Assembly: GCA_951406725.2 (NCBI GenBank)
Contig: OX597823.1
Coordinates: 81,034,001 to 81,098,000 of the forward strand
DNA from: Octopus vulgaris
Lineage: Eukaryota
Reading direction: 5' to 3'
DNA: 64,000 nucleotides
Below, one piece after another: positions 897 through 50,487 of this stretch. How positions within the stretch are numbered: position 1 is the first letter of the stretch; each line of letters opens with the position of its first letter. The notes beneath the pieces are model-generated. The model ran no database searches, was not told the origin of the DNA, and was given only the letters and a program-made list of their open reading frames with translations. Both the position numbers and the translations under genes were made by a program.

Positions 897-3800
897 GTAT
901 GTAGCTTTTGAAATTTCCATTCTTGTGATATAAACATTGGTCAATGTCATAAAATATAAAGAATTTTATGAGGATATAAACTGTAATTGTTTATTCTGTT
1001 TGCTAAAAGTAACACATACTAATTTCTTTTTCTTGATTACAGAAGTATAGGTATTTTCTTTATACTTGCTAAATCTAGAAGAAGGGGCCATGCTCTTGGT
1101 TTTTTTTATAGGCCTGCCTAGACCGATTGGATTGGTGATATTTATGCTCCCCTCAAACCTTTGTAAGTCAACATCTGAAAAACATATGAGCCATGGAGGA
1201 AATCCAGAGGAATGGTATTATGGGTACAAAAAAGGATTGGGTATAGTGGTTAGTGTGAGGCCTGCAGGGAGGGAGTTGACAACAAAGGTGATAAGAGGAG
1301 GAAAGGTGAGTAGGGCAGCCATGCCCAAATGGAGGTGTAGCATGAGCTGAGCCAGCTCTGAGAAATAGAGGCCTTTGTAATGCTGGGAGAACAGGCAAAG
1401 ACGAAAGACTGTGCATGGAGAACAGAGGCTAGAGCATGTCTATGAGTGTTTTTTATGTCAATCAACTGAGTGGCCCTTTTTGGATGTGATTTCGGATGTC
1501 TGTGTACATAGCAGCTACCTCATCCCAAATGGGAGAGCAATACTGCATCATGGGCCTCACTTGAGCTTTATTGTGTATTACTAACTATTGGGGGGTGAAG
1601 TATCTTATGGTCTTAAAGAGAAAGGCAGGTTTTCAGTATACAATCCAAGTAGTGCCAAGACTGACCTTTATCAGGAAGATTATTCGTGATAGATGAACTC
1701 AATAATTAGAATGATTTGTGGGGCTTTAGCTGAGTGCTTCGCAAGATTAAAGAGTTTTCTGATTTGAGTAGCATTTTGTGTTTTATTACTGTTAGAAGAA
1801 AAGATAGTCAAATCTCAGTTGGAGACTCATCAATATTGTCTAACTTAAAACTCACATTTATGTTATTATAGGATGCTACACACGATTATAGTTTCATTAC
1901 AAAAGCATTATATATTAAACAAATTTATTTCACTATTGACATAAATGTGTTAGTTCAAATTTGCTTAGATTCTTGGTTTCTTTTATTCTTCAATTTTCTC
2001 TACCTTATACTCCTTTACACTCTAAATTTGTTTGGTTATTATTTAGCTGTGTGTATGTGTATGTGTGTGTGAGTGTGTGCAACATAAAAAATGTTGCATT
2101 GTATATTTTGGCTTTAAATGATTGAATAAATAATGTTGTTTTCTTCATCTCTTAATACAGAATCCTGGTGTGTGATGAATGATGGTTTAGCTGATGCTTC
2201 ATTAATAAGAAGTTGGAGCATTAAGACTTCAAGCAATCAAGAACATGTAAATTCTATCAGACCAGGTGGAAAAGGATGGAAACCTGATGTCAATGACAAA
2301 AAACGTTCTGTAACAATTTTTGTTGGAGATGCTTTAAGATATGGTGCAACAATAAGATTACCCCGTGCCAAATATGTGGAGAAGTTTGATGTGATACTCA
2401 GTGATGGACAGGTAAATTATATCCAGACTTCTAATAATTATGGTATCAAACATTTGTTATTTTTGTATTATTTAATATATATTGGTTTCAAATTTTGACA
2501 CTGAATCGTTGCATCCCACAGGATTTTGCAATTCTCGTTCATGGTGATTAGTTCAGGGGTTTGTTCATACCTTGTGTTTGCTCTTTGTAGGCCGTGATTT
2601 CCACAGAGCTTCCAATGGATCATTCTTGCCACATTGTCATGGTGTCTTTTGTATTCATGTTGTCCAATTTCAGGCATTCACTAACGATGTGCCATACCAT
2701 TTCACCCCTCTCACCACACATTCTGCATTTGTCACTGTCAGTAGTGTTGTCTATCCTGCACTTCACATAGTTGGTCCTTAATGCTTGTTCTTGAGCTGCA
2801 CATATGAGTGCTTGTTTCTATCTTCTTCATCCATACCTACCAGGCCTCTCTATCTGCTTTGGCATTGACATCTCTTGCAAACTGACTGTACAATTTTTTT
2901 CCTTACATACTTTTTCTAGTTTTGTGTTCATTTCTTGTATAAATCTTTCTTTCATTACACAATTTTCAGTTTTAATTATAATAATAATAATAGCAATGAA
3001 GATTCAAAGTCTAGGAATATATAACATCACTGCAGGGCCAGATAATCTTGTGGATTAGCTTTAGTTGTTCTGGGGGAAATGGTTGTTAGTTGATGGAACC
3101 TGTAGTCATGCTACACATGTCAAATCAGTCGAGCATAAATACTATTAAATTATGAATTTTAATCCAAAAACTGTCTGTGATGGAGATTAGAGAATTTTCA
3201 GGTAAATATAAAACCAAAGGAATGGGCAATATTGGCTATAGAAGAATAAACATCTTTCCATCCTCCTCTTCCCCCTCCTTGTCGTCGTTGTCATCATCGT
3301 CATCATTTAATGGCCATTTTCCATGCTGGTATGGGTTGGCTGGTTTGATTGAAGCTGGCAAGTCAGAAGTTTGCACCAAGCTCTACTGGCTGCCTTGATA
3401 TGGTTTCTTTGGCTGGATGCCCTTCCTAACACCAACCACTTTGCAAAGTGTACTGAGTGCTTTTTATGTGGAACCAGTACCAGGTTATAATAAAATATTT
3501 GTTTGAGATTAAGAGAATGATTAAATATTTATCTCCTTCATTTTAAAGTCTTTCCCTTGTTTTCTCATCAGTTGTCTCTTGTTTAAGATGACAAATTTTT
3601 ATTGTTTATAAAACATATGATGATTCTACAGAAAAGTTCAATTTAGGTGATTCATTGATAGATTGATGTATTTTGTAATATAAATTTTATATAATTTTAC
3701 TGACTTCATCATCATCATCATCTTTTAACATCTGTTGTCCACACTGACATGACTTATATATCTTTCTACAGAATACCAAACATATGCGTAACAACAAACC

Positions 3801-5249
3801 TGATGCTATTATCAAGATACCATTTGGCACTACAGTCAACAGTGTAACGTTAAGATTCCACTCTGTTAAACCAAAATGTCAGATAGTTGTAACAGTATCA
3901 ATGCTTGGATGTTTTGAATCACGTAAGTGTGGTTGTAAATTTCAATCATATTTTCCACACAGTTATCTTATAAGCTATTCAAGTTTATGTGATATTTTAC
4001 CTTTATTTTTTAAAAAAGATCATTCAATTATACATTGTAGAAAAATTATCTTGCAACAGCTTGTTTGCTCTTTACGTCTGTTTTTCCATGCTAGCATGAG
4101 TTAAATGAATATATGTTAAAGGTGTTGTTTTCAGCTGGTTACTAACCCTTAATGGTTACTATTCTATATAGTCTTTTCTTATACATGGAATCTAATTGTT
4201 CCTTAATGTTTTCTCTGTAGAATTTACAACTGAAGCAGAAACAACAGCTACAGGTATGCCATTTAGAATTTTCACAATTGCATTATAACCAGACATTCAT
4301 GTTCGCTGTTGATAAATAATAACTTAATATAAACACTATTTATGTCATACATTTATGTCATACATGTTTATGTAATATATTCCAGTTGCCTATAATTTTC
4401 TCTACAGGATTAAGATATGTTGTGAATATTCTGTAAAACTGGCATTTAGTTGGTAAGTCTGGGTCCCTTCCTCATCACCATCATCGCCAAGGTTGACTTT
4501 GCCTTTTACCCTTTCAGGGTCGATTAAATAAGTACCAGTTATGCACTGAGGTCAGTGTAATCGACTTAAACCCTTTGATTGTCTCCTCTATGTTTAGCCC
4601 CCTGTGGGCAAAAAAAAAAATTAAATATATACACCAGAGAACCTGGGAAACCAGTCCTATGCTCCTTAGTGACTAATGTGGGCTAACCAACTCATGTTGA
4701 TGGCTGTTGACTCACAACCAGCTCATCCATACTTTCGCCGGCTTTGGTTCTAGTCTTGCAAAGAATCCACAATACCTTCCTCACCTGACAAGCCAACCAA
4801 CCATGAAACCAGTAGTACAGAGTTACATGGTACCATGAGCAGGATTTTCTTGACCTGACTTTTTAAAGATAACAATAGCTGCAATATTAAAAACTTATAT
4901 TCAGCAAATTCCATTCATAACAAATACACAGGACATCAATTGTAGCTTTCTTACATCCTTTCTTTCCTTTTATGTATTTTGTTCTCTCTTCCTCTCAACT
5001 TTTTTTACTCTGTCCTTTGTTTTTTTTTTCATTAGTTTTATTGTTGTTGCTTTTGTTGTGGCTACTTTGTCCCAAATAAGTTCTGACCATGCAAATATAA
5101 TATGATCAAAAGAGTTACAGTCATGGTCATATCTTTTTGTACGTTCACAATTATTTTGACCATTATACAATTCTTGCTTTAAAATGATAGAGTTTGATTT
5201 CAGAGAAATTTGATTTCTGTTTCTAACAGGCCAAGTGACAATAAAAAGG

Positions 5250-5323
<74 letters not shown>

Positions 5324-6613
5324 TTGGCTTATATTATTCAGATACTCCTTTGCATTTATGTAGAGGTGTTACTATGCATGTGTAAGTATTGATTAACATG
5401 TGTCTAAAAGGGTAGGCAAAAGGAAAACTTTTGTTCTCTGTATTTCAGACATAAACGATTAAAAAAAAAAAGTTTGAGTGCGACCATGTATGTACATGTA
5501 CACACACACATCTTAATCTGAGCATGAATTTGCACAGTGCAAATTAAAAGAATTTATTGGCAGTATTTGGTGTTCACCTGTTGAACAGATAATGCTGTTT
5601 TCTTCATCTCTTAATACAGAATCATGGTGTGCAATGAATGATGGTTTAGCTGATGCCTCATTAATAAGAAGTTGGGACATTAAGACTTCAAGCAATCAAG
5701 AACATGTAAATTCCATTAGACCTGGTGGAAAAGGATGGAAACCTGATGTCAGTGACAAAAAACGTACTGTAACAATTTTTGTTGGAGATGCTTTAAGATA
5801 TGGTGCTACAATAAGATTACCCCATGCGAAATATGTGGAGAAGTTTGATGTGATACTCTCTGATGGAAAGGTAAATTACGTCCAGATTTTAAGGATATTA
5901 TTTTAAACCAATCAAATATTAAATCTAATATAAGAAATAATCTTATGTTGTTGTTATTTGTATTTGCCCCATGTCCACACTTCCCTGCTATCTTATAATG
6001 AAAACTATTCAAGACATGAACAAGTCACCTTTTGGTGAACATAGTGTAACTGAGACTACATAAATCAATGGATTCTTTCTACTTTTAAGATGGTAGTGTG
6101 AAACTAGAGGGAGATTTGACTGCTATTTCTAGCAAGGCAAGCATGCACATCAACTTCTAAATGTAAAGATATTGAAAAATAATTACGTCTTCCTTTAGAA
6201 ATAATTTTCATCCAGATCTTTTCTCATTACTCTTGTAAGTTATCTTCATCAAACAGTAATTCTTTTATGTTTTATCTTTCTGAAACACAAAACTTTCTGA
6301 AATGTCTTATGGAATTCTTTTGATACCAACTCGCATCAAACTGTCTTTTGTTCTATGATACAAGCATTTTGTTTTATAATAAATCTAAATTAAAACCTAC
6401 CAAAATTTCATACTCTTTTACTTGTTTCAGTCATTTGACTGTGGCCATGCTGGAGCACCGCCTTTAGTCGAGCAAATCGACCCCAGGACTTAATCTTTGG
6501 AAGTCTAGTACTTATTCTATCAGTCTCTCTTGCCGAACTGCTAAGTTACGGGGACGTAAACACACCAGCATCGGTTGTCAAGCGATGTTGGGAGGACAAA
6601 AACAAACATATAA

Positions 6614-6674
<61 letters not shown>

Positions 6675-7595
6675 TATGACAGGCTTCTTTCAGTTTCCGC
6701 CTACCAAATCCACTCACAAGGCTTTGGTCGGCCTGAGGCTATAGTAGAAGACACTTGCCCAAGGTGCCATGAAGTTGGAATGAACCCAGAACCATGTGGT
6801 TGGTAAGCGAGCTACTTACCACACTGCTACTTACCACAGCCACTACTGCGCCTTCATGTTAATTTATGTTCCAGATATGAGCTGAATAAGGACAACATTA
6901 TCTTGCTAAAGTCTTCATTATTTTCAAAAGTAATTGAGACAAAGAAATATCATAACAAAACGGTTAAATATTTCATTAGTATATTGGTGTGTTGTAAACT
7001 ACCTTTTTAACATAAATAATACTAACTATCCTATATCTCTTTCTACAGAATACTAAACACATGCGTAACAACAAACCTGATGCTATCATCAAAATACCTT
7101 TTGGTACAACTGTCAACAGTATAAAATTGAGATTTTATTCTGTTAAACCAGATTGCCAAATAGCTGTAACAGTATCAATTCTTGGATGCTTTGAATCACG
7201 TGAGTGTGATTCTATGATTCTATATCATACTTTTATTAAGCATGTTATTATGTGCAGTCAGTTATTTATAAGCTCCTTTTATATATTACATGTAATTCAA
7301 CTCTCTTTAACAAAAATGTTTTCCAATGTCTTCTCTCCAGAATCTACAACTGAAGCAGTAACAACAGCCACAGGTATGTAGATAAGAATTTCTACAATTG
7401 TTCTATATTTGAAGACCCATGTTATATAAAGGCCAGCAAATTACATCCCTACTATTGTGTATGTGATATGTTATGAATAATACAAACCAAATGTCTATAA
7501 TTGAATCCAGAATTAAAAAGTTGTTGGAAATATTCACTTGGATATAAAATCGTGATTGTCTTACTTTTCATCTATATATATAAAGCTGAAGTTGT

Positions 7596-7633
<38 letters not shown>

Positions 7634-8456
7634 CAGTTTTGGTAGCCTTCAACTAACACTATCTCCTCTGAGACCCTGCGGTGCAAGTTGACCAAAATTG
7701 AGAGTAGGATAGAAGAAGGCTTGCTCTTCATTCCGTAGAAGTAAAAATGCAAATCAGACCATGTTAAGACCAGAAATTATTTACATCAAAAAGGTGCTTT
7801 TTTTCTATGAAAATCCCTTTTTTAAAATTTTTTTGACTGCTGTGTCACCATTTTTCAGTGTATTTCAACCTGAAAAATGTTCACTTAAAGAGAATAACAA
7901 GCTACATAATGCAAAATTTTTACTTTCAAAAATTCCTATTCTAAAGGGTCGAAACAAACCCGAGCAATGCCGGGTTATACTGCTAGTTTATGTAAAAATA
8001 TGAATTTACAGATAGAGTTTTAGTGTCTTAGAAAATTGTGGATAAAAAAAAATTATGTCAATGAAATAAATCAACTGCCTTCTTACTATAAGCATATTAG
8101 GTTTTTTGTGGCAAATCAAAACAGTTAAATTTGAAAATATAGAAGTGTGAAAACAACAACATAGAGTATAAGTATAACAAAATAAAGGCATACATGGAAT
8201 GGCAATGTTTCTGACCCATGAGAATACCTAAAATAATCTGTTCCTGACACATGCTAAAGAAAATAGGAATTATAACAACTCATAGCAACATGTTTATGTT
8301 TAAAAAGATCTGTTGGAGTTCATATTTTAAAAAAATATAACAGTCTTCATATTCACAATATCTATGAGAAAATTAAAATGAAATAGATAACTTTATAAAA
8401 TGATTTTTATCTAGACATAATTTATGTGTATATGACAATGTGTGTGTGAGTATGTT

Positions 8457-8487
<31 letters not shown>

Positions 8488-11302
8488 AGTAGTTATGAGA
8501 ATCTGGAAATCATGCTGCACAAATTCATCTAACAAAATATTTGACTGTTATATTGCACGTTCGGATGACTTCTACTCAACTCCCAATGCCTAGACTTCTC
8601 CCTCTAGATCGACGTATTGGGCTTGCTTACTTCATCGTCTGTGGGTGTCCACACAACACTCTTGTAGTCCACACTCTTGTATGGCACTTTATAGATAATT
8701 ATAAACCTGACGTGTTTCAGGGAACAAATGATCGTACCCAAAGGATATTATTTAATTAACAGAAAAAGAGCTCTGTGTAAATGAGATCCAATGCAGTTTG
8801 AATGCTCATCTTGAGCCATGAAATCAAAACATTTCTATGAAGATTTGTCCAAAATTTGTCATTAAACTACACGCAGAAAGTGGCCATTATTGGCTGGAAC
8901 GAAAAAAAAAACAGATTCATATTACGAAATTGTGTAACTAATGTAAGAAAATAGTGTTGCTTTTAGTTCAGAAATCTAACTTTAAGACAAATTCCTTCTC
9001 CTGTTTTACTCTGGAATTTCTTTTAATCCTGTTGCACTTTTTCACTTTATCTTTGTTTTTTTTTCTTTTGGCTTTTTTATTTTGTAATGTGATATTTCAC
9101 ATATAAGTGCTGAAATATACATGTACCACTTTTTATTTTTTTATCTTCTGCTTATTTCAGTCATTAGGTTGTGGCCATGTGGAGGCAATGCCTTGGAGAT
9201 TTTTAGTCAAATGAATCAACCCCAGTACTTCTTTTTATTCAAGTACTGCTACTTATTCTATCAGTCTCTTTTGCCGAAGCCACTAAACTATGGGGGACAT
9301 AAACACACCACCATCAGTTGTCAAGTGACAAATACAAAGGCACATGCATGTGCACACACTCACACACTCACACACACCATGGGCTTCTTTTCAGTTTCCG
9401 TCTACCAAATCCACTCACAAGGCTTTGGTCAGCCTGAGACTATAGTAGTAGACACTTGCCCAAAGTGCCACGCAATGGGACTGAACCTGAGACCATGTGC
9501 CTCTGTTTATTTTTCTAATTAAATATTTTTGTTTTGGTTTATTTATAAGTGTGTGTGTGTTGTGTGTGTGTGTGCTTAAGCGTTGATGTGTATGTGTGAG
9601 TCCATCAGGAGGTGGATAATTTTCTTCCATTATTTTGGCTTTAAATAATTGAATAAATGATATTGTTTTCTTCATCTCTTAATGTAGAATCCTGGTGTGT
9701 GATGAATGATGGTTTAGCTGATGCTTCATTGATAAGAAGTTGGGACATTAAGACTTCAAGCAATCAAGAACATGTAAATTCTATCAGACCAGGTGGAAAA
9801 GGCTGGAAACCTGATCTTAGTGACACTAAACGTTCTATAACAATTTTTGTTAGAGATGCTTTAAGATATGGTGCAACAATAAGACTGCCTCATGCCAAAT
9901 ATGTTGAGAAGTTTGATGTGATACTCTCTGATGGACGGGTAAATTGTACACTAATTTATAATAATATTCATTATTAACCATTTGCAATTTTAATTTTGTT
10001 CTTTTGTGAAGAAAAAATGTGTTATATAAATAAATGTAATAACAGATTGTATTACCTTATTTTGCACATTTCCTTTTCACACAAGATATACTTATTTATA
10101 TATCTGTGTATATATATATCAAAATATTGTTAGAGATAGAAACACTCACAACTTCATCAACTCCAAATGATATTAACTCAACCAAGTCATAAAATGTTAA
10201 ATAATATACTTACTATTTATATTCATAATCCCAAAATTTTCATATTACGGACTACACGTATTTCATGAGGGTACGTATGGTATCATTCAAAAACTCATTA
10301 TGTTTACTCACTCCCAATCGTCAGGTCTACTTTCCCCACATTTATAAATAAAACTACTCCTTACATATCACTAAATAAACATAATGGGGAAAGTAGACCT
10401 GATGATATATATTTGTTTTGCATATTTGTAGAACCTTCCATCATTATCTGGAAATGTCTCATAGTTTTATATCAATATATTGCCATATCTTAAAATGAAT
10501 ATTTTAAAACTTGTGGGATTAACAAAGCAATTTCATTTCCTACAGAATACCAACCATCTACGAAATAACAAACCTGATGCTATTATCAAGATACCATTTG
10601 GCACCACCGTCAACAGTGTAACATTAAGATTTCACTCTGTTAAACCAAACTGCCAATTAGTTGTAACCGTATCAATTCTTGGATGTTTTGAATCACGTAA
10701 GTGAAATAGTTTTCAATACAATATTGTTATATAAAATCACATTGGTTATAGATGGGATTACATATTATGTAATATGTAATCCTGTGCTTTAAAATAGTTA
10801 ATGGTAAAATTAGATTTATTTCACAGAAGTAAAATGAATGAACCAATAAAATCAATGCTTGCAGAAAGGAAGGATTCTTTGTTCGCTCAATTATCAATAA
10901 AGTTAGTCATTTTATATTTCTTTGGGGACATAAAACCAATAAGAGTACAATGGTCCTAGAGTTCATTACTCTTCCCTTAACAACTCTACAGACTGTCTTG
11001 GAACCACAAGGAGATGGCTTAAAGAGAGAAAAGTGTTGGTATATTTTTTAAATTGTTAAATTTAAACATGTAACAACATACTATACACAGTTGTTTATAG
11101 GCACCAAATCAAATTGCTTTTCAATATTTTCTCTTCAGAATCTACAACTGAAGCAGCAACAACAGCTACAGGTATGTATTTGAAATTTTCCATTATTGCA
11201 AAATAATAAATATACTTGATTCTCATACAGAGGATACAACTGGATTATTTCTCCAAGTTCTATTATTTAGATATATCTATGTTCATGTGTATGTTTGTGA
11301 GA

Positions 11303-11348
<46 letters not shown>

Positions 11349-14300
11349 ACATGTATGCATGTGTAAAATGTAAAATAAAAAACATCACATAATCTGAGCT
11401 TAAATGATTGAATAAATAATGTTGTTTTCTTCTTCCCTAAATACAGAATCCTGGTGTGTGATGAATGATGGTTTAGCTGATGCTTCATTAATAAGAAGTT
11501 GGGACATTAAGACTTCAAGCAATCAAGAACATGTAAATTCTATCAGACCTGGTGGAAAAGGCTGGAAACCTGATGTCAGTGACAAAAAACGTACTGTAAC
11601 AATTTTTGTTGGAGATGCTTTAAGATATGGTGCAACAATAAGATTACCCCATGCCAAATATGTTGAGAAGTTTGATGTGATACTCTCTGATGGACAGGTA
11701 AATTATATCCAAGTTATAAAGAGATAATTAAAAATGTGTTCTTAATCACACAGTATCACAATATTGACCAGACCATCAGATGCTGTTATCTAGCACTTGA
11801 CCCACTGTACTTTCAATTCTGGCTTGATTGCACCATTCTTTTCAATCTTGATCCAAATTGCTTAACTAAATCGTCTTCCCATTGTTATGGAAGCCATCCA
11901 AGTGACTCATTCTGATCTCTTAGATACCACTAAATTATAATTGGCCAGAAATTTTGAAGGGAGAAATCGGTTGATTCCATCAGCCCCAGTATTTAACTGG
12001 AGCTTTATTTTTAAGATCCTCAAAAGGATAAAATACGAAACTGACCATAGTGGGATTAGATCTCAGAATGTAAAGAGGGCATATGATTTAGTGCAGTGTT
12101 TTTCAAACTATGAGTCCTGACCCTTCAGTGGGTCGTGAGATAAATAAAACTAGTCGCAACAAAAATGTTTGGAAAATGCTGATTTAGTGGTTTAGGTATT
12201 CAGCTCACAAACAAGGCTGTGAGTTCGATTCCTAGTGACACATTGTGTCTTTGAGCAAGACACTTTATTTCAATTGACTGACCTTGTCGTATTCTCTTTT
12301 TCACTGATTCCTCTTGAGAAATATATCAAGGATACACGTATCAGTGGAGTGCTCAGTCACTTGCCTGTTAATTTCACAAATAAGCTGTTTCATTGATTGG
12401 ATCAACTAGAATCCTTGTTGTCATTAACAGGTGGAGTGCCAGTATTGGTCTGTTGTTCTAATGATTATGTCAATCCAATGCTCTTATAAATTTATTTCTA
12501 ATAAGAAATATGTAGTATCTTTGCTGTATTTTATCCCTATTTTGGTCTTGATCCAGTGGACCTGCAATTAAATACACACAAACAATAACCATCTCATCTT
12601 GCTTCAAGAATAATGTAACTTTGAATATTTTAGCCAATACGTCCGTCCATTTTTAAAATGTAAGGAGGAGATTTGAGGGTATTTGGCAACTAATTCCAGA
12701 TGATTGAGTGAGCATCTTTACTTTTTAATGATTTCATTAAATAATTAGGATTTTTATTACAAATAACTTCTAATGAGAATTTTATTTCTAGTTATTTACT
12801 AAACAATTATCTTTTATAAAAAAAAAACTTACAATTCTTTTATTTTTCTCTTTCTACCACATCTTGAAATTTCCCTGATATCATTTTATCAGATTGAGTA
12901 AAAAGTAAGCAACTTTTTGAACCATGAAGAATTTGTATGGGATTTTTGCAGAGTTTTGAATTTTTTAAAACATTTTTTTGTAATTTTCTGATAATACTGA
13001 CATAGACTTGTCCAAATGCATCAATAGAGTGACATTGACATTTTTTTCACTGTTGTTACAATCATCTGAAATGGAACCATGAAAGCGCAATATTCGAGCT
13101 ATTTTGCTATCCAATTTCAAAAATGTACATAGAGCAGCTGAAACTGCTTGCGATATCAATGAAACGTTTGGTGAGGAAATGACTGTTAGTGGTCAACTTG
13201 AAAATGGTTTAAATGATTTAGTTGTAGAGACCTGAGATTTGAAGATCATGATGGCCATCTGTCATCAATGATAGTCAATTAAAGACCATCATTGAAAAAG
13301 ATCTATATAAAACCACTTGAGAACTGGGAAAAGAACTTCAGGTTTGCCAGAAAACTGCCTGCAACCATTTGCATATGATCAGAAAATCAAAAAAGCTCAA
13401 CAAATGGGTACCACACGATTTGAATGAAAATCAGAAGATGCACAGCTATGAAATTTGTTCCTTGCTTCTCCATAACCAGACCAATCCATTTATCAATGGT
13501 ATTGTAACTTGCAATGAAAACTGGATTCTGTACAATAATAAAAAAAACGTTCTTTGCAGTTGTTTGACCAAAATGAAGCACCAAAAACCATCTCCAAACC
13601 CGAGCTCTTCAAAAAGGTTATGGTGACTGTTTGGTGGTGTACTCATCCACTATAACTTCTTAAAACCCAGAAAAACCATTACTGCAGAAACATATTGCCA
13701 AAATGAATGAAAAACTGCTACTCTTCCATCCCAGACTGGTCAACAGAAGAGGGCCAATCATTCTTCATGACAGTGCTCGACTTCATGTTTCACTAATGAC
13801 ACTTCAGAAGTTGAGGGAACTTGGCTACGAAGTTCTTCCCCACCCAGCTTATTCCCCAGACCTTTCTCCTACTGACTACCACTTTTTCAATCACCATGAT
13901 GGTTTCCTGTGAGAGAAGGAGTTCCAAAATCAAACGAATGCTGAAAGTGCATTCAAAGAGTTCATCAGCTCCTGAACTCCAGATTCTTATGTTACCAGAA
14001 TAAACAAACTTGTAACCCATTGGCAAAAATGTGTTGACTGTAATGGTACTTACTTTGACAAATAAAATTTCTGTATTGTAGAAATATATTGTAGTGAATG
14101 TCATGTTTCAAAACGTTGCTTACCTTTTACTCACCCTGATATAGAAATATATTAATATGTTTTAATATATATTCTAAAAACATGCAGTATTAACTAAACA
14201 ATATATCTTTTACAGAATACCAACTATATTCGAAACAATAATCCTGATGCTATCATCAAAATACCTTTTGGCACCACCGTCAACAGTGTAAAATTACGAT

Positions 14301-15354
14301 TTCACACTGTTAAACCAAATTGCCAAATAGTTGTAACAGTATCAATTCTTGGATGTTTTGAATCCCGTAAGTGCAATTTTATTTTTAAACAGACTTTCCA
14401 ATGAAGTCCTCAACTGTGCCAAGATACTTGATAAACTAGTAAGATGAGGGGTGGGGGAAGGGGAAGGTATCCTCAAACCAGAGACCTGGCCTGAGTCTGT
14501 GAAATAAATTGGAATCCACTAAAGACACCCAAGGTATCAGGTTTTGCTCTTAAACTAAGCCACAGGTTATGTTAACCATCCAAATAGACAATGGTAAGAT
14601 CTGAACTGAAAAGTATAAAAAAGGTGGAACAAATAATGTAAGATATTTTATCCTGTATCCTTAGTCCTGCCATTCCATGGCCATGGATTGGTTATTCCTT
14701 TATAACCCCACAAAAAAGGCATGAAATATGAAGATGACCATTCTGGGATTTGAACCCAGATGGCTCAGAGCCAGAGCAAATATAGCATGAGGTATTCAAT
14801 CCAAAGCTTTAACAACCCTGCCAATTCACTTGCTACTTGTAATTAACAAATATATGATTCTTTTTTTTTTTAAATAGACTTTCTGATGAATGCAAATGTG
14901 TTTTTTCTCCTGGTTTTTTTTTTTTTTTTTTAGATTTTCTTTTAAAACTGCCACAAATATTTTCAAAGGGATTCAGCATAAGCCTAGGACAATTATCAAG
15001 CTAAGATGATGTTTTTTGAAACATAAATAGCTTCAGAAATCACTCAATAGTTATGCATTTTATATATTCATTATATGCATGCTCACTCTCGGAGTGGTTG
15101 GCGTTAGGAAGGGCATCCAGCTGTAGAAACACTGCCAGATCTGACTGGCCTGGTGCAGCCTTCGGGCTCCCCAGACCCCAGTTGAACCGTCCAACCCATG
15201 CTAGCATGGAAAGCAGACGTTAAACGATGATGATGATGATATATATTACTACATTATATTATAGAGACATATATGCACATATGTATGTATTGCAGGTGTG
15301 TGTGTGTATGTATATATATATGTGTGTGTGTATGTATATATATATATATGTATG

Positions 15355-15417
<63 letters not shown>

Positions 15418-15434
15418 ATGTATGTATGTATGTA

Positions 15435-15467
<33 letters not shown>

Positions 15468-15904
15468 ATGTATGTATGTATGTATGTATATATATGTATG
15501 TATGTATGTATATATATTTGTATATATATATGTAATGTAAATATATATAAGAATATACACACACATGCACACATAAATTACATATAGACACATGAAATAT
15601 GTGTATACTCTAAACAATGAACATAAACAAAATGACAACACAGGAGGAGCAAACTTTAACAAATGTTAAAATTAATAGGTTATTGCTTAAAAGAAGGAAG
15701 GGAAAGAGTCTTAACATTTTGGGAATTAGTCCTTCATCAGAATAGAAGCAAAAAGAGAGGGGAAGAAAAGAAGACAGAAAAGAGATTAAAAGGAGGAAAA
15801 TGATGGAAGTGGTGAGTGGAAGAGGTGGAGGTAAATAATGGGAAGTGCTAGGAGCAAGGAAATATAAATAAGAGGTCAGTATAAGTTTTAAACATTTATA
15901 TATA

Positions 15905-15937
<33 letters not shown>

Positions 15938-24900: not shown

Positions 24901-26961
24901 TTTTTATCTGATATAGTGTAATTTGGACTACATTAGACAGTGTGAATTTTACTTTTGTACCAAGTAAAACAAGCCAGAACAGATCAACAATATGACTTGA
25001 TAAATACTTTGGTATTCTTTATTAATTTGATAAATGATTACTACATTTTTAATTAAGTTACAAAATATCTTCTAACATGAGCTTCATCTTTCTTTATTCT
25101 CAAGCAATTATCATTTGTTTTGAAACACATATTTAAAATATTTTTCCTTTGTGTAATATCTACCAAAATTATCTCAAAATATCTCTTACTTAGTTTCACA
25201 TTAGTATATTGTTAAATTTAAAAAAAATTAATCCTGTTAACTAAACTAACATTTCTTCCTACAGAACACCAAGCATATACAAAACAACAAACCTGATGCT
25301 ATTATTAAAATACCTTTTGGTACCACCGTCAACAATATAAAGTTACAATTTCACTCTGTTAAACCAGAATGCCAGATAGTTGTAACAGTATCAATTCTTG
25401 GATGTTTTGAAGCACGTAAGTGTAACTGCACTTCATAAACTTTATAATCCAAGATTTCTTTTTGCTATTTATAACACATGCTCTAGATACGTTTTAATCC
25501 TGCAGAAAAAATTGACCAAGTGGTAAAATAACAAAATAACATACTGTATAACTGTTTCAATGCATAAAATTAACTTATTCTGTTAATATCTTTTCTGCAG
25601 AATCAACAACTCCGGCAGCAACAGCTACAGGTATGAAATTTACTATTTCCTCTACTGCGATATCAGAATGGTCCTATGTTATGTAGAGACAAAGTATTGC
25701 ATAAAAGTATAAAATTCTGTCATATGCAATAATAATTGAGTGCTTTTGTTAATTACAGGGTTAAAAATGTGTTGAAAAATATTCTTTCCAGTATGAGTTA
25801 AGCAATGTAGTTTTCATATGAGCAAATGTGATGTTACAGATAATAAGAGGCTGAGTTATAAAAATTTTAATATACAGGTGCAAGCATGGCTATGTGGTAA
25901 GAAGCTTGCTTCTCAATTACATGCTTTTGGGTTCAGTACCACTGCGTGGTACCTTAGGTGACTGTTCTACCAAAGCCTTGGTAGAACAAAGTCTGATGCA
26001 GTCCTCTGCCTGGTCAGCTCCTGTCAAACCGACCAACCCATGCCAGCATGGAAAGCAGATGTTAAACAATGATAATAATGATGATGCTGATGATTAGCTC
26101 ATTCCTTATATCACATCTGCATTGTCTCTCCAGGATCACAATGTGCCACATGTCTAATGTTGATGTGATCATGGAGTAACATGAGATGAAATGTTTTTCT
26201 CAAGAACACAATGCTTTTCCCAGTCCAGGAATCAAAATCACAATCTTGTGATCATGAATGAAACACCCTAACCACTAAGCCATGCATTCTTGTAATGATG
26301 TACATGTGTAAGTGTTTACATCTGTAAGCTTGAAAGAGTAGAAACCTTCTGTATTTTCATGATAACTAATGTAAGAAACAAAATGTGTGTGTGTACATGT
26401 CGGTATATATTTGTGTCTCAGTATATACAATGTGAGGTAAAAGTATTTACTTCCAGTATTTAGCATTCACTGATTGCATAAATAATGTTGCTTTTCCTCT
26501 CTTAATACAGAATCATGGTGTGTGATGAATGATGGTTTAGCAGATGCTTCATTAATAAGAAGTTGGGACATTGAGACTTCAAGCAATCAAGAACATGTAA
26601 ATTCTATCAGACCTGGTGGAAAAGGATGGAAACCTGATGTCAGTGACAAAAAACGCACTGTAACAATTTTTGTTGGAGATGCTTTAAGATATGGTGCAAC
26701 AATAAGATTACCCCATGCAAAATATGTGGAGAAGTTTGACGTGATACTCTCTGATGGACGGGTAAATTATATCCAAATTCTGAATATAAACTTATTTTAT
26801 TTTTACACCAAACATTTACTTATTGATGAATGTAGACATAAGTATGGCTGTGTGGTTAAGAAACTTGTTTCCCAATCTCATGGTTTTGATAGTATGCCCA
26901 CTCTATTGACAGATATATGAGTGCATCTTTTCCCTGACTTGTGGTCTCTTAGACGACTCAC

Positions 26962-27006
<45 letters not shown>

Positions 27007-30000
27007 ATGGGCTTCTTCCAGTTTCTGACTGCCAAATCGACTCACAAGAATTTGGTCAGCCTGAGGCTATAGTTGAAAATACTTATCCTAGGTTCCATGT
27101 TGTGGGACTGAACCTGGAACCATGTGGTTGGGAAGCAAATTTCTTATCACACAGCTATGCCTGCAATCTTTTTATATAAATTTTTAAAGTGGGCAATATT
27201 AACTAAGCTGTATTATTTTTACAGAATACCAAGCATATACAAAACAACAAACCTGATGCTATTATCAAAATACCTTTTGGTACCACAGTCAAAAGTATAA
27301 AGTTACAATTTCATTCTGTTAAACCAGAATGCCAGATAGTTGTAACAGTATCAATCCTTGGATGTTTTGAAGCACGTAAGTTTGGCTTATACTTTTTAAA
27401 CAAAGTTTTCAGTCCAGAATTCCTATATACTATATATATATTAATTTTAACCCAAGTTATATTTTCTATACATTTTAATCATATATAAGAAAAATATAAA
27501 TTTATGCCATAAAAATAACAAAATAATATTTATATAATAATCTGCTTGTTAGTACACTCGTTACACATTAGTTAGTTAAAGAGGTGGAAGTGGAGTGAGT
27601 GAGAGGTTGAGTAAAAGTGAGAGAAATAGAAGGGGAAGAATGTGATTAGAAAAGAAAGAAGTGAGGAAGAAGTAGAGAAAGATGTATAAGGCCAAATGTG
27701 TCACGTGGTTAGTTGAAGGGAGAGGTTAAGAGCGAGAGAAAAAGATGGTGAGAGAAAAGTGGGGGAGAAAATTGTGAGTGACATGTAGGGTGGAGGAGAG
27801 AGAAAGATAAATAGAAAGAGATATGTTTAGGATACAATATTTAGGAGAGGGTGATGGTCGGTGGTGAGTTTAAGAAAGGCAGATAGAGAAATGAACAGAG
27901 GAGGCAGTTACATTAAGAGAGAGAGAGAAAGCGAGCGAGAGAGAAAGTGAGAGAGAGAGAGAGAGAGATGGTGGTTATGGTGGTGGTGGTGTGTTGATAG
28001 CGAAAAATATTTTTTCGTTGAACTAAATCTATAATATTATTCTTCTACTTGTTAGTTTAGTTTATACTTTTGTTTGTTAGAGAGGAGGAGGAGATAGAGT
28101 TAGAGAGAGAAGAAGAGGGAATGTGAGAGTAAGTGAGAGAGCAGATAGCCAACAGATGCATTATACTGTCACTCATGTGGCTAGTAGAAGTGAGAGATGA
28201 TGAGAAAGAGAGAAATGTTAAAGACATGAAGAGGGGAATGACATGGTTAAAAAGTTTGTTGAAGAGGTAGAGATAAAGAGAGAACTATAAAGTGCTTAGC
28301 AGAGGGAAATTTTAAAATCAGATTATATATTATTGTGACTGGAAGTGAAATAACTTAGCAAAATGAAAATTAAAATGAAAATCATCCTTTCTTTCTTAAA
28401 TAGCTTTTCTTAATCTTTTTTCATTCTGTGGAATTTCCATGGACTCCACATGTATTATATAATTGTTTCAGTGCTAACAATTTAATTATTCTTTAATATC
28501 TTCTCTCTAGAGTCTACAACAATAGCTGCAACAACTGCTACTGGTAAGTAGTCTACAATTTATGCTATCCCTTGTCTTTATGGCAAGGGATTAAGGCAGT
28601 GAGCTGGCAGAATCATTAGCATGCCGGGCGAAATGCCTAGCGGTATTTCATCTGCTGCTACGTTCTGAGTTCAAATTCTGCCGAGGTCGACTTTGCCTTT
28701 CATCCTTTTGGGGTCGATAAATTAAGTACCAGTTACGCACTGGGGTCGATGTAATCGACTTAACCCCTTTGTCTGTCCTTGTTTGTCCCCTCTAAGTTTA
28801 GCCCCCTGTGGACAATAAAGAAATATTTATGGCAAGGGATGTCATAAAAGCTTAGATCCATGTTAGATGTAATAATAACTCAATACTTTTAAAGATTCCC
28901 TTCGGTCATGAATGACCAAAGGATTGCACTTTGAAAGTTACTCTCCAAGGTACAAGTCCAGCCAAGGTTGTTTATGGAAGACCAGCAGTCTCCCATGCCA
29001 GCTGCACCTCTCCATATCACCGATGTTATCCATGGGAAAGGTGAGGCTGATACAGCTTGGCACCAGTAATACCGCAATTCATTTCTACAGCTGAGTGAAC
29101 TGGAGCAACATGAAATAAAGTGTCTTGCTCAAGAATACAACTCACAGCCCAATCTGGGAATCAAACTCACTACCGTATGATTGTGAGCCTGATGCTCTAA
29201 CCACTAAGCCATGTGCCTTCACATATCCAATTCTTTTAGGCTATGATTAATTAGAGGACAAAATTTTAAATACATTGAAGAGTAATCTTTGCGATATGAC
29301 TAATTCAATAGTCTTCCTGCAGACTAATGTTTCTCATCCATTTTTTGCCTATGGATTACCAGCATTGCCTTACTGGCACCTGTGCTGGTGGCATGTGTAA
29401 AAAGATTCAAGCGAGATTGTTGCCAGTGCTGCCTGACTGGCCCCCGTGCCGGTGGCATGTAAAAAGCACCCACTACACTCTCGGAGTGGTTGGTGTTAGG
29501 AAGGGCATCCAGCTGTAGAAACTCTACCAGATCAAGATTGGAGCCTGGTGCAGCCATCTGGTTCGCCAGCCCTCAGTTAAAATCATTCAACCCATGCTAG
29601 CATGGAAAGCAGACGTTAAACGACGATGATGATGATGATGATGATGGACCCTTATTTTACTCTACTGGGCCTCCAGAGCTAGTTCATGTGTATAAAAAAA
29701 AACATCCTAATGTATTTTTTATAATTAAATATTATTAAGAATTGTACAACAAAAAATTTTAATATTTTGTGTATTGTAAAAGTATAAGCAATTTATTGCA
29801 CATACACATTAACAATAAAATCTTATATGTAGATCCTGGTTGGGCCATGTGGATCCTGGTTGGGAACCACAGCTGTAGATTATGATTCATGCAACAATGT
29901 CATGTTGCAGATAATGAGAGATGTTGGCGAATTCCGTTCATTGTGAATATCATCATCATTTAACATTCATTGTCCATGATGGTATGGGTTGAATGGCTTG

Positions 30001-33000
30001 ACCAGAGCTGACCACGTGGAGAGCTACACCAGATTCCAGTCTGATTTTGCATGGTTTCTATGGCTGGATGCCCTTCCTAATGCCAACCACTTTCCAGAAT
30101 GTGCTAGGTGCTTTTGCATGGCACCACATGGATGCTTTTACATGGTGCTGCATGGGCATTTATTGTGGCACTGTGCAGGAGCACTTACATGCTTTTATGT
30201 GGCTCTGCACAGGTATTTTTTTATGGCACCACACAGGTGCTTTTACATGGCACTGTCATGAGTGCTTTCCACCACTGCAGGGACTGGTCTAAACACATCT
30301 GCTGCAGAGTACAGGTCCTCTTGAGTACAGCAAAGCCCCAGCCATCTCTGTCCTTTGTCAAGCAAGTGCCAGACATCTGGGTCCTTTCTCATAGATATCA
30401 CTTCTAACCTTCTAATAATCTCATTTTCTGTGATACTTTTGCTTGCTTATCTTATCACACTGTTTTGCTCTCTTACTATTTTGATATCAGTTAGATTTAT
30501 TTGCCATTGTCATCATTAGCTGCAGCAGCAGCATTTAGCCATCATCTCATCCTTCATTGAGCAGACATTTAATAAAAGGCATTCCAGTCATGACATGCCA
30601 TCCTTTTGGTTATGCTGGGTACAGTGGCCAATGTGAACTTCTTGTTTTAATTGGTGGTCAGTGGTTTCTTGTTACTGCCACTTCTAGCAGGTCAAGCAAT
30701 GTGATAGAGACTTCCTTGATGGCTTAGATTACTAAGATACTTCTGACTAATTGTGTATGTATTGATGAGTCTATATAAGTGATTATGTTTGTTTTAGTTT
30801 TCCATTTTTTTTTGTTTTTTTTTGTTTTGTGCGTGTGTGTGTGTGTGTCTGCATGTGTGTGCCAGTCTGTGTGCCTGTGTGAGGTAAAAGAACTACTTCT
30901 TATCACCATAACTAATATGGAAAATAAAGGGCATGTGTGTATATGCCTTTTTGAGTGTGTATGTGTGTATCTATGTTTGTGTATGTATGTGAGGCAGAGT
31001 GTGAGAGAATATTCACTTATGTACAGGTTTGTACAATGTTTATTAATGTAGATTGGCGTTAGGAAGGGCATCCAGCTGTAGAAACTTAGTCAAATCAGAT
31101 TGGAGCCTGGTGCAGCCTTCTGGCTCGCCAGTCATCAGTCAAACCGTCCAACCCATGCCAGCATGGAACATGGACGTTAAACGACAATGATGATGATGAT
31201 GATGATGAATAAATAATTTTCAATAATTGATTGAATAAATAATGTTGTTTTTTTCATTTCTTAAAACAGAGTCCTGGTGTGTGATGAATGATGGTTTAGC
31301 AGATGCTTTATTAATAAGAAGTTGGGACATTGAGACTTCAAGCAATCAAGAACATGTAAATTCCATCAGACCTGGTGGAAAAGGATGGAAACCTGATCTC
31401 AGTGACAAAAAACGTACTGTAACAATTTTTGTTGGAGATGCTTTAAGATATGGTGCAACAATAAGATTACCCCATGCGAAATATGTTGAGAAATTTGATG
31501 TGATACTCTCTGATGGGAAGGTAAATTGTCTACTAATTTATAATAATATCTATTATTTTTAATTAATTAACCGTTTGTAATTTTTATATTGCTTATATAA
31601 TGAAAATATGTCTAGTATAAATAAAATTAATAACAGATTGCCTTATTTTGCATATGACCTTATCATGCAATATATAGTGTGGGCCACAGTTCATGACTAA
31701 CTTATTAGTTATATTTCTTAATATGCTTATTTTGTTGTTATTCAACATCATCATCATCGTTTAACGTCTGTTTACCATGCTGGCATGGGTTGGACAGTTT
31801 GAATGGAGACTGGTAAGCCAGGAGGCCTCACCAGGCTCCAATCTAATCTGGCAATGTTTCTACAGCTGGATGCCCTTCCTGACATAAACCACTCCGAGAG
31901 TGAAGTGGGTACTTTTTACGAGCTACCAGCACAGGAGCCAGTCATGCGGCACAGGCATTGGCCACGTTCAGACAGTGCCTTTTACATGCTATTGGCACAA
32001 GAGCCAGTCGGGGGTGGGGGTGGGGGTAGGGTGTGTGCTGGCATTGACCAGGTTTGGTTGGTGATTTTTATGTGCCATCAACATGAGGAGCCAGTCAGGC
32101 AGCACTTGCAATGACCCACACATGAATGGAGCTTATTGCGTGCCACCAGCACAAGAACCAATCAGGCAGTGCTGGCATCGGCCACAATTACAATTTCCAT
32201 TTAACTGTGATTTGATTTTTGATTTTGATTTTACTTGACTCAGTATCAGTGATATCCGTGCTACTGATTTTAAACAAAAAAGAACCCCTTCCTTTTAACA
32301 AGTGTCAATTATATTGGCTCATTCATTTTATTTCTCTGAAGTAAATCTAATTTTACAAATTATATTAATGCTTATAATTTAACTATTACATCATACAAAG
32401 TGTATAATATCATCCATTACAATTGTGATTTTGTATAGCAATACTTTATTGAAAATACAATTACACTTACATAGGCTAGTTATGCACCGCAGGTATAGGC
32501 TATGATCTCACTTTACTTACTGGATCTTCTCAATCACAGCGTATCTCCAGAGGTCTTGGTCTTTCATCATTGCTTCTGTGAGGCCCAACATTCAAAGGTC
32601 ATGCTTCACTACCTCATCCCATGTCTTCCTGGGTCTCCCTCTTCCAAGGGTTCCTTCAACTGTTAGGGAATGACACTTCTTCACACAGTTCTCCTCATCT
32701 ATACACAGCACATTACCATATCAGTGCAGTTATCTCTCTTGCACACCACATCTATTGCGTTTCTTTCAGGGCATATGTGCACACTGACATCACAATTATT
32801 GTATTATTTTATTTCTTAACATGTTTATTTTACTGATATTGTATTGTTTTAATTTATTATTTTTTAATATGCGTATTAATAGATATTAATATATTAATAA
32901 ATATTAATATATTAATAAATATAACTAACAAGTGAGTCGTGAATTCTGGCCCACCCTGTACATATCCACAAATGTGTTTGTATAACCAAATGCTATAATA

Positions 33001-35678
33001 TATATTCTAAGCTAGTGATTACCTGGCTTGTTATTCATATTCAGTATTCATCCCTTTATTCACTTATCACTAATATTTTGATAAATAATTACCTTTCCAT
33101 TACAGCTAATTAACCAGTGATTGATCTCTTGCTATTCACATTATTTTCATTTCTTGTGTGTCAACTCTTCTTATGTCCGTTTTTTCTTTCTCTTGTACCT
33201 GCTGTAGTTACCTGGAAAAGTCTATATATAGCTGTACATTTGTATATTGGTAGATTTAATGTAAAATTTTAAAACAGACAATATTAACTTTGTTATATCT
33301 CTTTAACAGAATTCCATGAATATACCAAACAATAAACCTGATGCTATTATCAAAATACCTTTTGGAACCACAGTAAACAGTGTCAAATTGCGATTTCATT
33401 CTGTTAAACCAGAATGCCAGATAGCAGTAACAGTATCAATTCTTGGATGTTTTGAATCACGTAAGTGTAATTGTATTTTCAATAAAGTATTGCTATATAA
33501 AACCACAATTGTAATGGATGATATTATACACCTTGTATAATGCAATAGTTTATTTATAAGCATTAATGTAATTTGTAAAATTAGATTTACTTCAGAGAAG
33601 TAAAAGGAATGATCCAGTCAAATTGACACTTGTAGAAAGGAAGGGTCCCTTGTTTGTTTAAAATCAGTTTCACTTATCTCACAAATGGTTAATGTTAGTC
33701 ATTCTATATTTATTTGTGGCTATAGAAATCATATAAGAATATGACAAACAGAATATGTTTCCCTTGCCTTAATATGTTTCCCTTGCTATTCAAATTATGC
33801 TCTAACTGTTACTTGCAACCACAAGGAAATTGCTTAAACAGGAAAGTTTTGGTATATATTTTAAATTGTTAAATTTAAACATGCTACAACACACTATATG
33901 CAGTTGTTTCTTTTTATTGAATTAAATTCTGCTTTTAATATCTTCACTTTAGAATCTACAACCGAAGCAGCAACAACAGCTACAGGTATGTATTTGAAAA
34001 TTTTCACCTTTGCAATGTACTCATTTGTTACTCATACAGTAGGTATATATGAGTTACTTCTCTGAGTTCTATTAGTTAGATCTCTCTATGTTTAAATGTG
34101 GAGGCGCAATGGCCCAGTGGTTAGGGCAGCAGACTCGTGGTCGGAGGATCACAGTTTTGATTCTCATCCGGGTGTTGTGTGTGTTTATTAAGCGAAAACA
34201 CCTAAAGCTCCATCAAGCTACAACAGGGGGTGGTGGCGACTCCTGTTGTACTCTTTCACCCCAACTTTCTCTCACTCTCCCTTCCTGTTTCTTGAGTAAC
34301 ACTGCGATGGACTGGCGTCCCGTCCAGCTGAGGGGAAGACATACGCCACAGAAACCGGGAAACCAGACCCATGAGCCTGGCTAGGCTTGAAAATGGCGCA
34401 TAAGAATATATGTTTAAGTGCATATATGTGTATATGAAGGAGTATATATCTGTGTGCTCATGTATGCATGCATGTGTAAAATATAAAATTTTAAAATGTA
34501 TCTTTTATAACCTGGACTTAAATAAATGAAGAAATAATCTTGTTTTTTCATTTTTCAAAACAGAGTCCTGGTGTGCGATGAATGATGGTTTAGCTGATGC
34601 TTCATTGATAAGAAGTTGGGACATTAAGACTTCAAGCAATCAAGAACATGTAAATTCTATCAGACCAGGTGGAAAAGGATGGAAACCTGATCTCAGTGAC
34701 ACTAAACGTACTGTGACAATTTTTGTTGGAGATGCTTTAAGATATGGTGCAACAATAAGACTACTCCATGCAAAGTATGTTGAGAAATTTGATGTGATGC
34801 TCTCTGATGGACAGGTAAGAAGCATTTAGTTTATTTCTCTAATGATCCTGTCTACATACTTCCCTTATTAATTTATTTTTATATGATGTGTCAAAACAAA
34901 CTCACATATTTTTCATTTGAAAACACACAGTGTGTACTGATTAAATTCATGATGGTAACTGAAGAAAGCAATAAAATATTATCTCCATGAAGACACCACT
35001 ACCGCCTGCCTAACTGTGCTGGTGCCACACCAATAGCTGTGGAAAATATGCAAAGTTTTTTTGATACACCCTATAATAAGAAATGTGTAGTGCTGTTGCT
35101 GCTTTCCATCTCTATACTAGTCTTCATTCAGCAGACCTAAGATGAAATGAAGACTCTTGTTTCAGGCATAGCATTACTGTGACTGCATTAGCCAAAGTGT
35201 GGCCAACCTTTTATAAAATGTTAGAATACAATTGGAAAGGATTTAGCTGTTATTTTTAAAACGGTAGGAAATAGCATTTAATTCTAAATGTATAAAAATA
35301 AGACAAAGATATTGATGAATATTTAGGTTTTACATTAAAAATAATTTCATTTTCATCGTTTATCTCTTCTGCAAGAACACTTAATCTTCAGTACTTTTGA
35401 TTCTGTAAATTCTTTCATAACTACCTGTAAATGGTTTCATATATACCTTTACATAAGTATCTCTTTTACTCTTTTACTTGTCTCAGTCATTTGACTGTGG
35501 CCATGCTGGAGCACCACCTTTACTCGAACAAATCGACCCCAGGACTTATTCTTTATAAGCCTAGTACCTATTCTATTGGTCTCTTTTGCCAAACTGCTAA
35601 GCTACGGGGACGTAAACACATCAGCATCGGTTTTCAAGTGATGTTGGGAGGACAAACTCAGACACACAAACACACACA

Positions 35679-35768
<90 letters not shown>

Positions 35769-47118: not shown

Positions 47119-47164
<46 letters not shown>

Positions 47165-50100: not shown

Positions 50101-50450
50101 ATTACTGGTCTTGTGCCAAAATTTGAAACCATTATTTAGGCCAGATAGGGTCAGTTTAACTGTGAAACGGTTAATTTATTTTCTCATCCTTTTGGTTAAA
50201 TTAATTTATTTCCATTAATTATAAATATGTTTCAGGATGTATGTATACTGAATGGCAGGCTTGGAGTTCTTGCAGCAAAACCTGTGATAATGGACTTCAA
50301 ACTAGAACTAGGAAAAAACATGTTGGCAAAGGGAATGAACCATGTAATCTTCCATTATCTGAAATTCAAGATTGCAATATTAAGATATGTCACGGTAATC
50401 AGCATTTTAATTTTCAATTTAAACTAATTATTTCTTTATTTTGTTTTAAG

Positions 50451-50487
<37 letters not shown>

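Follow-up and report, generated by a model that had tools for sequence, protein, structure and literature searches.

Exon-biased homogenisation of a nine-unit exon array within one Octopus vulgaris gene, probably by ectopic gene conversion

Why should the copies of one exon in a tandem array be more alike than the copies of its neighbour and than the introns between them? The question is raised by a 64,000-nucleotide (nt) stretch of the Octopus vulgaris genome (NCBI GenBank assembly GCA_951406725.2, contig OX597823.1, positions 81,034,001 to 81,098,000, forward strand; hereafter the window, with positions counted from its first letter). Self-comparison and splice-site reading across the window revealed, on the + strand of a single gene, nine tandem three-exon units with the exon order C-A-B. 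A preliminary description had proposed that these are old duplications whose longest exon, A, is continually homogenised by intragenic gene conversion, mediated by either DNA or cDNA. Old duplication with ongoing intragenic conversion, faster in A, is supported by our analysis, chiefly by a four-sequence comparison with Octopus bimaculoides and by excess homoplasy. We suggest, with a probability of about 65%, that ectopic DNA gene conversion among the units accounts for the pattern, being exon-biased and graded, faster in A and not confined to A. The exon-biased array would thereby be a further case of a well-known process, in an unusually clear setting.

Each unit consists of a C exon of 33 nt (30 nt in C7), an A exon of 251 nt and a B exon of 151 nt, encoding respectively a T-rich linker of 10 amino acids (aa) and, in A and B together, a predicted discoidin-fold domain. 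With C7 taken as 30 nt, all 27 exons have open frames, AG/GT edges and compatible phases (C 1-1, A 1-0, B 0-1), and the 26 introns that separate them are 141-2726 nt long. Unit 1 comprises C1 (864-896), a 33-nt phase 1-1 microexon for a T/A-rich linker, A1 (2161-2411), which supplies the N-terminal 83 aa of the discoidin-like domain, and B1 (3772-3922), which supplies its C-terminal 50 aa. The other units, likewise on the + strand, are unit 2 at 4221-7199 (C2 4221-4253, A2 5620-5870, B2 7049-7199), unit 3 at 7341-10696 (C3 7341-7373, A3 9688-9938, B3 10546-10696), unit 4 at 11139-14366 (C4 11139-11171, A4 11447-11697, B4 14216-14366), unit 5 at 16595-21361 (C5 16595-16627, A5 18569-18819, B5 21211-21361), unit 6 at 21580-25415 (C6 21580-21612, A6 23650-23900, B6 25265-25415), unit 7 at 25601-27375 (C7 25601-25630, which is one codon short, A7 26511-26761, B7 27225-27375), unit 8 at 28511-33460 (C8 28511-28543, A8 31270-31520, B8 33310-33460) and unit 9 at 33953-36165 (C9 33953-33985, A9 34564-34814, B9 36015-36165). 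Since the window holds no B exon ahead of C1, the array may extend upstream. No inverted copy of A was found within the window.

The pairwise counts first reported for these exons were exact: A1 and A4 differ at 10 of 251 sites, A1 and A2 at 17 of 251, and B1 and B2 at 22 of 151, the last mostly synonymous as stated (15 synonymous, 7 non-synonymous). Over all 36 pairs, the mean proportion of differing sites (p) is 0.067 in A (range 0.036-0.104) and 0.143 in B (0.046-0.199); A copies differ from one another at 9-26 of their 251 sites, many of them private. Synonymous divergence (dS) by the Nei-Gojobori method (NG86) is 0.21 in A and 0.51 in B (codon bootstrap P=0.0016), Ks by the Li93 method is 0.22 and 0.43 (P=0.008), and the B:A ratio of the proportion of synonymous differences (pS) is 2.0 (95% confidence interval (CI) 1.3-3.2). 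Maximum-likelihood (ML) tree lengths are 0.31 for A and 0.83 for B, and third positions are variable at 30 of 79 codons in A and 34 of 50 in B (Fisher P=0.001). Synonymous divergence is thus lower in A, but the gap is just about two-fold, less than the impression that A exons are "far more alike" would convey. Non-synonymous divergence (dN) is 0.034 and 0.086, and the two exons have equal dN/dS (0.164 vs 0.170). The dS ratio would imply a conversion rate about two-fold higher in A if mutation and conversion were in balance, although B may not be. Identical runs average 56 nt in A, with a maximum of 102 nt, and 27 nt in B. Five variants that had been named as evidence for homogenised synonymous sites are indeed present, at A codons 38, 43, 46, 69 and 83, but those at 43, 46 and 83 alter the amino acid.

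The sole long database relative that we found is the O. bimaculoides protein A0A0L8GSU4, a 5'-truncated model that starts inside an A exon, matches A4 at 96%, and contains five units followed by a collinear tail with TSP1, TIL and VWC domains. The cross-species comparison is therefore with a single other species, at the protein level, and for two orthologous units (8 and 9), units 1-7 being without a one-to-one match. In the quartet W8,O4|W9,O5, B has 7 position-supporting sites out of 50 and A has 1 out of 83 (Fisher P=0.0045); the orthologues themselves differ at 11 of 166 sites in A and at 5 of 100 in B (P=0.79). A changes between species as B does, yet it has lost the old differences between paralogues, so that slower evolution of A is no explanation. 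B8 and B9 each have the positional orthologue as their nearest copy (at 3 and 2 differences, against 6 for the next best), whereas the positional orthologue of A8 is the joint-farthest of the five O. bimaculoides copies (7 differences). Residues common to the same-position O. bimaculoides units are carried by B8, B9 and C8, which indicates that units 8 and 9 predate the split between the two species. Within the O. bimaculoides protein alone, the pattern is the same, with an amino acid divergence of 0.052 in A and 0.160 in B. Some A variants are skewed by lineage: T46 is found in four of five O. bimaculoides copies and two of nine window copies, and R/K83 in none of the five and five of the nine.

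Excess homoplasy was found in both exons. The A copies require 18 extra steps, against a simulated mean of 6.4, a level reached in none of 150 fitted-tree simulations and in none of 120 under ML invariant sites; the B copies require 29, reached in 0 of 120. The mosaic sharing of variants among copies, noticed at the outset, is thus in excess of recurrent mutation in the fitted-model simulations (0/150, 0/120). Incompatibility affects 44% of the pairs of informative sites in A and 52% of those in B, and does not depend on distance. Distance among copies correlates with unit position in B (Mantel r=0.41, P=0.009) and not significantly in A (r=0.17, P=0.16). In the exon trees, the grouping of B6 with B7 alone has appreciable support; these copies differ at 7 of 151 sites, their flanks diverge within about 7 nt of either exon edge, and A6 and A7 differ at 19 of 251. 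Judged from its sequence, B6/B7 is an exon-limited exchange event in B.

The introns present a different picture. In the flanks 60-100 nt from the exons, identity is 0.54-0.58, as compared with 0.48-0.54 for non-homologous sequence and 0.55-0.58 for simulated divergence (K) of about 0.5-0.7. Most introns have diverged by a K of at least 0.5, at or above the dS of B and well above that of A. The independent, decayed repeat insertions that had been described are borne out by four dispersed-repeat families in differing places and orientations. Two identically oriented copies of a repeat family of about 420 bp stop short of the following B exon, by 70 nt at B7 (26974-27155) and by 88 nt at B9 (35461-35927), and introns A7-B7 and A9-B9 may share one repeat insertion. 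That introns are only patchily alignable is true of most of them, most flanks lying near the non-homologous background, but not of a block running from after A3 to before A4 (9939-11446), which can be aligned, at about 20% mismatch, with the intron stretch between A8 and A9 (31521-34563). Within it, introns B3-C4 and B8-C9 are alignable over their whole length (86 mismatches in 430 aligned columns; score 385, against at most 45.5 in 30 shuffles), and alignments were also obtained between introns C4-A4 and C9-A9 and between the beginning of A3-B3 and A8-B8. In whole-intron global alignments free gaps make even unrelated introns look alike, as controls revealed; scores alone were trusted, and the 0.20 for the block is a lower bound. 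This homology suggests either a multi-unit block duplication with an offset of five or one long conversion. B3 and B8 differ at 14 of 34 synonymous sites, more than the adjacent intron at 86 of 430 (P=0.008), so one of the two has likely been replaced. Together with the B6/B7 tract, which runs to the exon edges, this means that B converts too, and conversion restricted to A, as first proposed, has to be given up.

Around the A exons, similarity does not end at the exon edge. Each A has about 55 nt of highly similar upstream intron, represented for A1 by 2104-2160 on the + strand; A1 and A3 are 94% identical there over 53 nt, and A1 and A5 90% over 59 nt. At 2-30 nt upstream, identity is 0.80 for A, 0.69 for B and 0.70 for C, compared with 0.57-0.58 for non-homologous sequence. 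By eye, A8 and A9 have minority bases in common to either side of the acceptor, though the farther intron of A9 is sister to that of A4. At 23618-23649, about 32 nt of the upstream flank kept in the other eight A copies are missing from A6. On average A6 is also the most distant of the A copies from the rest, which fits a lowering of conversion through loss of the flank.

We propose that the units arose through old tandem duplications, after which indels and repeat insertions would have ended the pairing of introns, and purifying selection would have held the exons above about 80% identity, so that pairing could go on there. Short ectopic conversions would then copy sequence between units wherever homology survives. 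Conversion stops with transposable element insertions and large indels, according to passages of PMC3924837, and its rate drops near 80% identity, with a minimal efficient segment of about 200 bp in yeast and rodents, according to passages of PMC3924818. The A exon and its flank of about 55 nt offer some 310 nt of homology with longer identical runs, and would thus feed back to a higher conversion rate; B would convert more rarely, and selection may also keep unit-specific B residues. Templating by DNA is favoured on account of the similarity of A some 55 nt upstream, the minority bases of A8 and A9 across the acceptor and the absence of any lost intron. Selection on splice signals could add to the similarity of the A upstream flank.

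Several results weigh against this reading. Homogenisation should scale every site class, and the equality of A and B at fourfold-degenerate sites (p 0.219 vs 0.229; 20/33 vs 12/21 variable, B having 21 such sites only) therefore counts against conversion. The entire A-B gap lies at twofold sites (0.057 in A, 0.311 in B), and the claim that synonymous sites of A are homogenised stands over all synonymous sites (P=0.0016-0.008) but not at fourfold sites alone. Base composition was considered as the cause of the gap and rejected, GC content at third positions being 0.244 and 0.249 and the gap staying in AT-ending twofold codons (7/38 vs 16/23). In B codons 1-34, variability at twofold sites (0.31) exceeds that at fourfold sites (0.23), an excess due mainly to transitions (0.222 vs 0.063); this contradicts the expectation for neutral mutation and, with 21 fourfold sites, may be due to sampling. 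The C exon, the shortest of the three, has a pS of 0.21 (CI 0.10-0.32; 0.09 without C7 and C8), like the 0.18 of A. A rule that the longest exon is homogenised thus fails, and length is an incomplete guide to homogeneity. Even in A, identical runs of at most 102 nt fall short of the efficient segment of about 200 bp discussed in PMC3924818. Within the block linking units 3/4 and 8/9, the dS of A (A3-A8 0.28, A4-A9 0.17) matches the divergence of the introns (p 0.20; Fisher P=0.6), an equality that had been named as evidence against conversion; it is local, and elsewhere introns exceed the dS of A.

The exchange tests add to this side of the balance. No discrete conversion tracts were detected: PHI-type tests (pairwise homoplasy index) gave no signal within exons (A P=0.33-0.40, B P=0.15-0.39), and Sawyer-type tests gave P=0.07 for A and P=0.97 for B, with no pair significant inside either exon, both being our own implementations with low power at 24-29 informative sites. 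Approximately unbiased (AU) tests rejected a clade taken from the introns or from the other exon in none of six cases (P 0.12-0.46), so the incongruence predicted among A, B and intron trees has no significant support from these tests, and A and B distances are weakly correlated (Mantel r=0.35, P=0.049). If change is confined to the observed-variable sites, or to fewer, the homoplasy of A is attained in 10 and 9 of 120 simulations, and its per-site homoplasy ratio in 20 and 27 of 120; over such over-restricted site models the observed homoplasy is reached in 4-10 of 120, and these settings under-produce variable sites. The narrowness of the cross-species comparison belongs here as well. Species-supporting sites in the quartet number zero in A and zero in B, and the predicted clustering of A copies by species reaches just P=0.06 in a permutation test, with no positional signal, the corresponding value for B being P=0.86, with positional signal for units 8 and 9.

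Much of this evidence would also follow if A, C and the 3' third of B were simply kept near their ancestral sequence by selection on protein and RNA, through splice enhancers and the branch point region, the mosaic then reflecting recurrent mutation at a few free sites. Equal fourfold divergence with a gap at twofold sites only, low pS in the C microexon and in B codons 35-50, equality of A dS and intron divergence in the 3/4-8/9 block, non-significant tracts and tree conflicts, and homoplasy that about 8% of simulations attain when very few sites are free are all as such constraint would have them. However, A and B have equal dN/dS, orthologous A exons are no less diverged in amino acids than B exons, and B6/B7 and B3/B8 are left unexplained; we consider constraint improbable, if the most serious of the competitors. 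RNA structure in A was examined as a cause of its low dS and is unsupported, A being no more structured than shuffled sequence in the five of nine copies tested (minimum free energy z 0.1 to 1.75). A different emphasis would be that all exons convert at a similar rate and that selection for unit-specific B residues purges events there and produces a peak of divergence in B, a precedent being opsin exon 5 as treated in passages of PMC3924837. Residues specific to B8 and B9 are kept across species at 7 of 50 sites, A and C are alike with B the outlier, and B codons 3-6 are hypervariable. Yet dN/dS is not higher in B than in A, B6/B7 was homogenised wholesale, and the position signal is clear in just two of five comparable units. 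We give such purging, which overlaps with the favoured explanation, a small chance, clearly smaller than that of constraint.

Marginally smaller again, in our estimation, is the chance that reverse-transcribed, spliced message overwrites the exons of other units while their introns are retained, so that divergence follows messenger RNA coordinates. Low divergence is contiguous in spliced order (the 3' third of B, C, A), with pS low in B codons 35-50 and high in codons 1-34 (post hoc permutation P=0.01), and this keeps both cDNA templating and splice-enhancer constraint alive. B6/B7 identity ends at both exon edges, but diverged flanks make edge-limited tracts expected from DNA conversion too. 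A junction-spanning run statistic is significant for A|B (P=0.006) and not for C|A (P=0.35) or B|C (P=0.24); the A|B signal depends on the pair 3/5, being lost without unit 3 or unit 5 (P=0.28, 0.29), and the min-statistic gives P=0.075. A run in the concatenated A and B exons of that pair (P=0.002) was set aside, since pooling exons of unequal divergence inflates the signal. A 269-aa open frame on the minus strand at 36488-37297, in the B9-A10 intron, has a weak Pfam RVT_1 match (E 4.5e-4, below cut-off) and is perhaps a decayed, truncated fragment of a LINE-like (long interspersed nuclear element) reverse transcriptase, which would indicate merely past retroelement activity in the genome. 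None of the 26 introns has been lost, and A similarity reaches about 55 nt into the upstream intron, so cDNA cannot be placed on an equal footing with DNA as first proposed. Were it nonetheless the template, the array would represent RNA-templated, intron-preserving concerted evolution in one animal gene, with even a 33-nt microexon kept uniform. Recent duplication of whole units, in which introns turned over very fast and conversion played no part, is strongly disfavoured: one intron block does align at a divergence equal to A dS, and AU tests do not reject intron-derived clades, but B is twice as diverged as A in the same units, units 8 and 9 are older than the species split, and most flanks lie near the non-homologous background. 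We attach just as little weight to an artefact of assembly or polishing in which the consensus of each copy took up reads from paralogous exons; cross-mapped short reads could leave a mosaic, exon-centred similarity, but the independently derived O. bimaculoides protein likewise has A below B, A copies differ at many private sites, and open frames and AG/GT edges are intact in all 27 exons.

Downstream of the array lies a divergent tenth pair on the + strand, A10 (39469-39725), with about 45% aa identity to the repeat domain and not homogenised, and B10 (41375-41507). The pair (39469-41507) is conserved with O. bimaculoides, whose orthologue has no C exon ahead of A10. Relative to the nine repeats, its A/B boundary is shifted later by a few codons, and most unnamed homologous open reading frames (ORFs) share this shift. 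Unique exons of the same gene follow on the + strand at 42642-62103 and encode linkers, TSP1, TIL and more TSP1, collinear with A0A0L8GSU4; tblastn matches between the unique exons of that protein and the window are collinear and mostly 82-99% identical, lower where they enter introns, which places the window in a related Octopus and not at the locus of that protein itself. Further database searches for long orthologues returned the O. bimaculoides protein only, or nothing. A representative search gave 14 matches, 13 of them short unnamed ORFs, of which 11 were added to the fold alignment and, having no species label, none to the species test. Elsewhere in the window, a 97-nt unit akin to one of the dispersed repeat families stands in three tandem copies at 49798-50081, and an AT dinucleotide of about 155 copies at 62431-62739 is far longer than the other microsatellites.

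The A+B domain is predicted to adopt the discoidin (F5/8 type C) beta-sandwich fold. For one orthologue domain, the predicted structure has a pLDDT (predicted local distance difference test) of 90.9, and its top Foldseek matches are neuropilin b, factor VIII C2 and DDR2 (E ~1e-5, query-based TM-score, TMq, ~0.6); Atlas leads for the domain were below 0.9. Pfam PF00754 gave no match for the A4 or B4 exon, nor anywhere in the orthologue. F5/8-type domains near T-rich segments, here of 10 aa only, with TSP1, TIL and VWC downstream, are the arrangement of a hemolectin- or SCO-spondin-like mucin, and we regard the gene as a candidate lophotrochozoan mucin that would work like these, its 5' part lying outside the window. 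The orthologue model, 5'-truncated as it is, contains TIL and VWC, but no VWD or CysD domain was found in it or in the window. The C-terminus of the orthologue is a cysteine-rich segment that we take to resemble a C-terminal cystine knot; Pfam gave none at E up to 1.

If conversion is indeed responsible, the array provides, in one gene, three exon lengths (33, 151 and 251 nt), each replicated nine times between decayed introns, and hence a natural test of the effects of length and identity on ectopic conversion in an animal germ line beyond yeast and rodents. It would also mean that the two halves of one protein domain can differ in genealogy, with misleading domain-repeat trees and duplication dates as a consequence. 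Conversion itself is well known; the value of the array is as a clean test case. We found no literature on the repeats of this gene in a search that left most subscription journals and supplements outside its scope.

Among invertebrate hemolectin- and SCO-spondin-like mucins, as portrayed in passages of PMC4948705, the F5_F8 domain is characteristic of lophotrochozoan mucin-like proteins. The octopus gene has in common with them discoidin-fold repeats with TSP1, TIL and VWC downstream; it differs in that its repeats miss Pfam F5_F8 and are recognised by fold alone, and in that its linkers are 10-aa microexons and not long proline/threonine/serine-rich (PTS) regions. Intragenic concerted evolution of domain repeats is known from mammalian tenascin-X (Hughes 1999, as summarised in PMC2267704), and for tenascin domain repeats it is also described in part of PMC1578592. 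There, as here, extracellular domain repeats are encoded by exons within one gene, and some repeats are homogenised within lineages while others, terminal ones included, are conserved by position, like A10/B10, B8 and B9 in the octopus. In the material on tenascin-X the whole domain repeat is compared, whereas the two exons of the octopus domain have separate histories with decayed introns between them. Interlocus conversion between duplicates, in the sections of PMC3924837 and PMC3924818 bearing on it, likewise persists given enough identity and length, and selected regions can escape it; in the opsins of PMC3924837, however, introns are homogenised and an exon diverges, the reverse of the polarity seen here. 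Spider spidroins (passages of PMC3563967) are similarly large secreted proteins with repeats homogenised at synonymous sites, and synonymous constraint is a rival explanation there too, but AcSp1 is a single exon and the introns of Flag and Argiope MaSp2 are nearly identical, whereas introns are the most diverged part of the octopus array. For the reflectin and tyrosinase clusters of Argonauta, part of PMC9635652 proposes concerted evolution or partial conversion among multi-exon copies in an octopod genome; that conversion is between whole genes, and the octopus array consists of exon modules of one gene. What is distinctive here is the polarity of exon over intron and the separate histories of the two halves of one domain.

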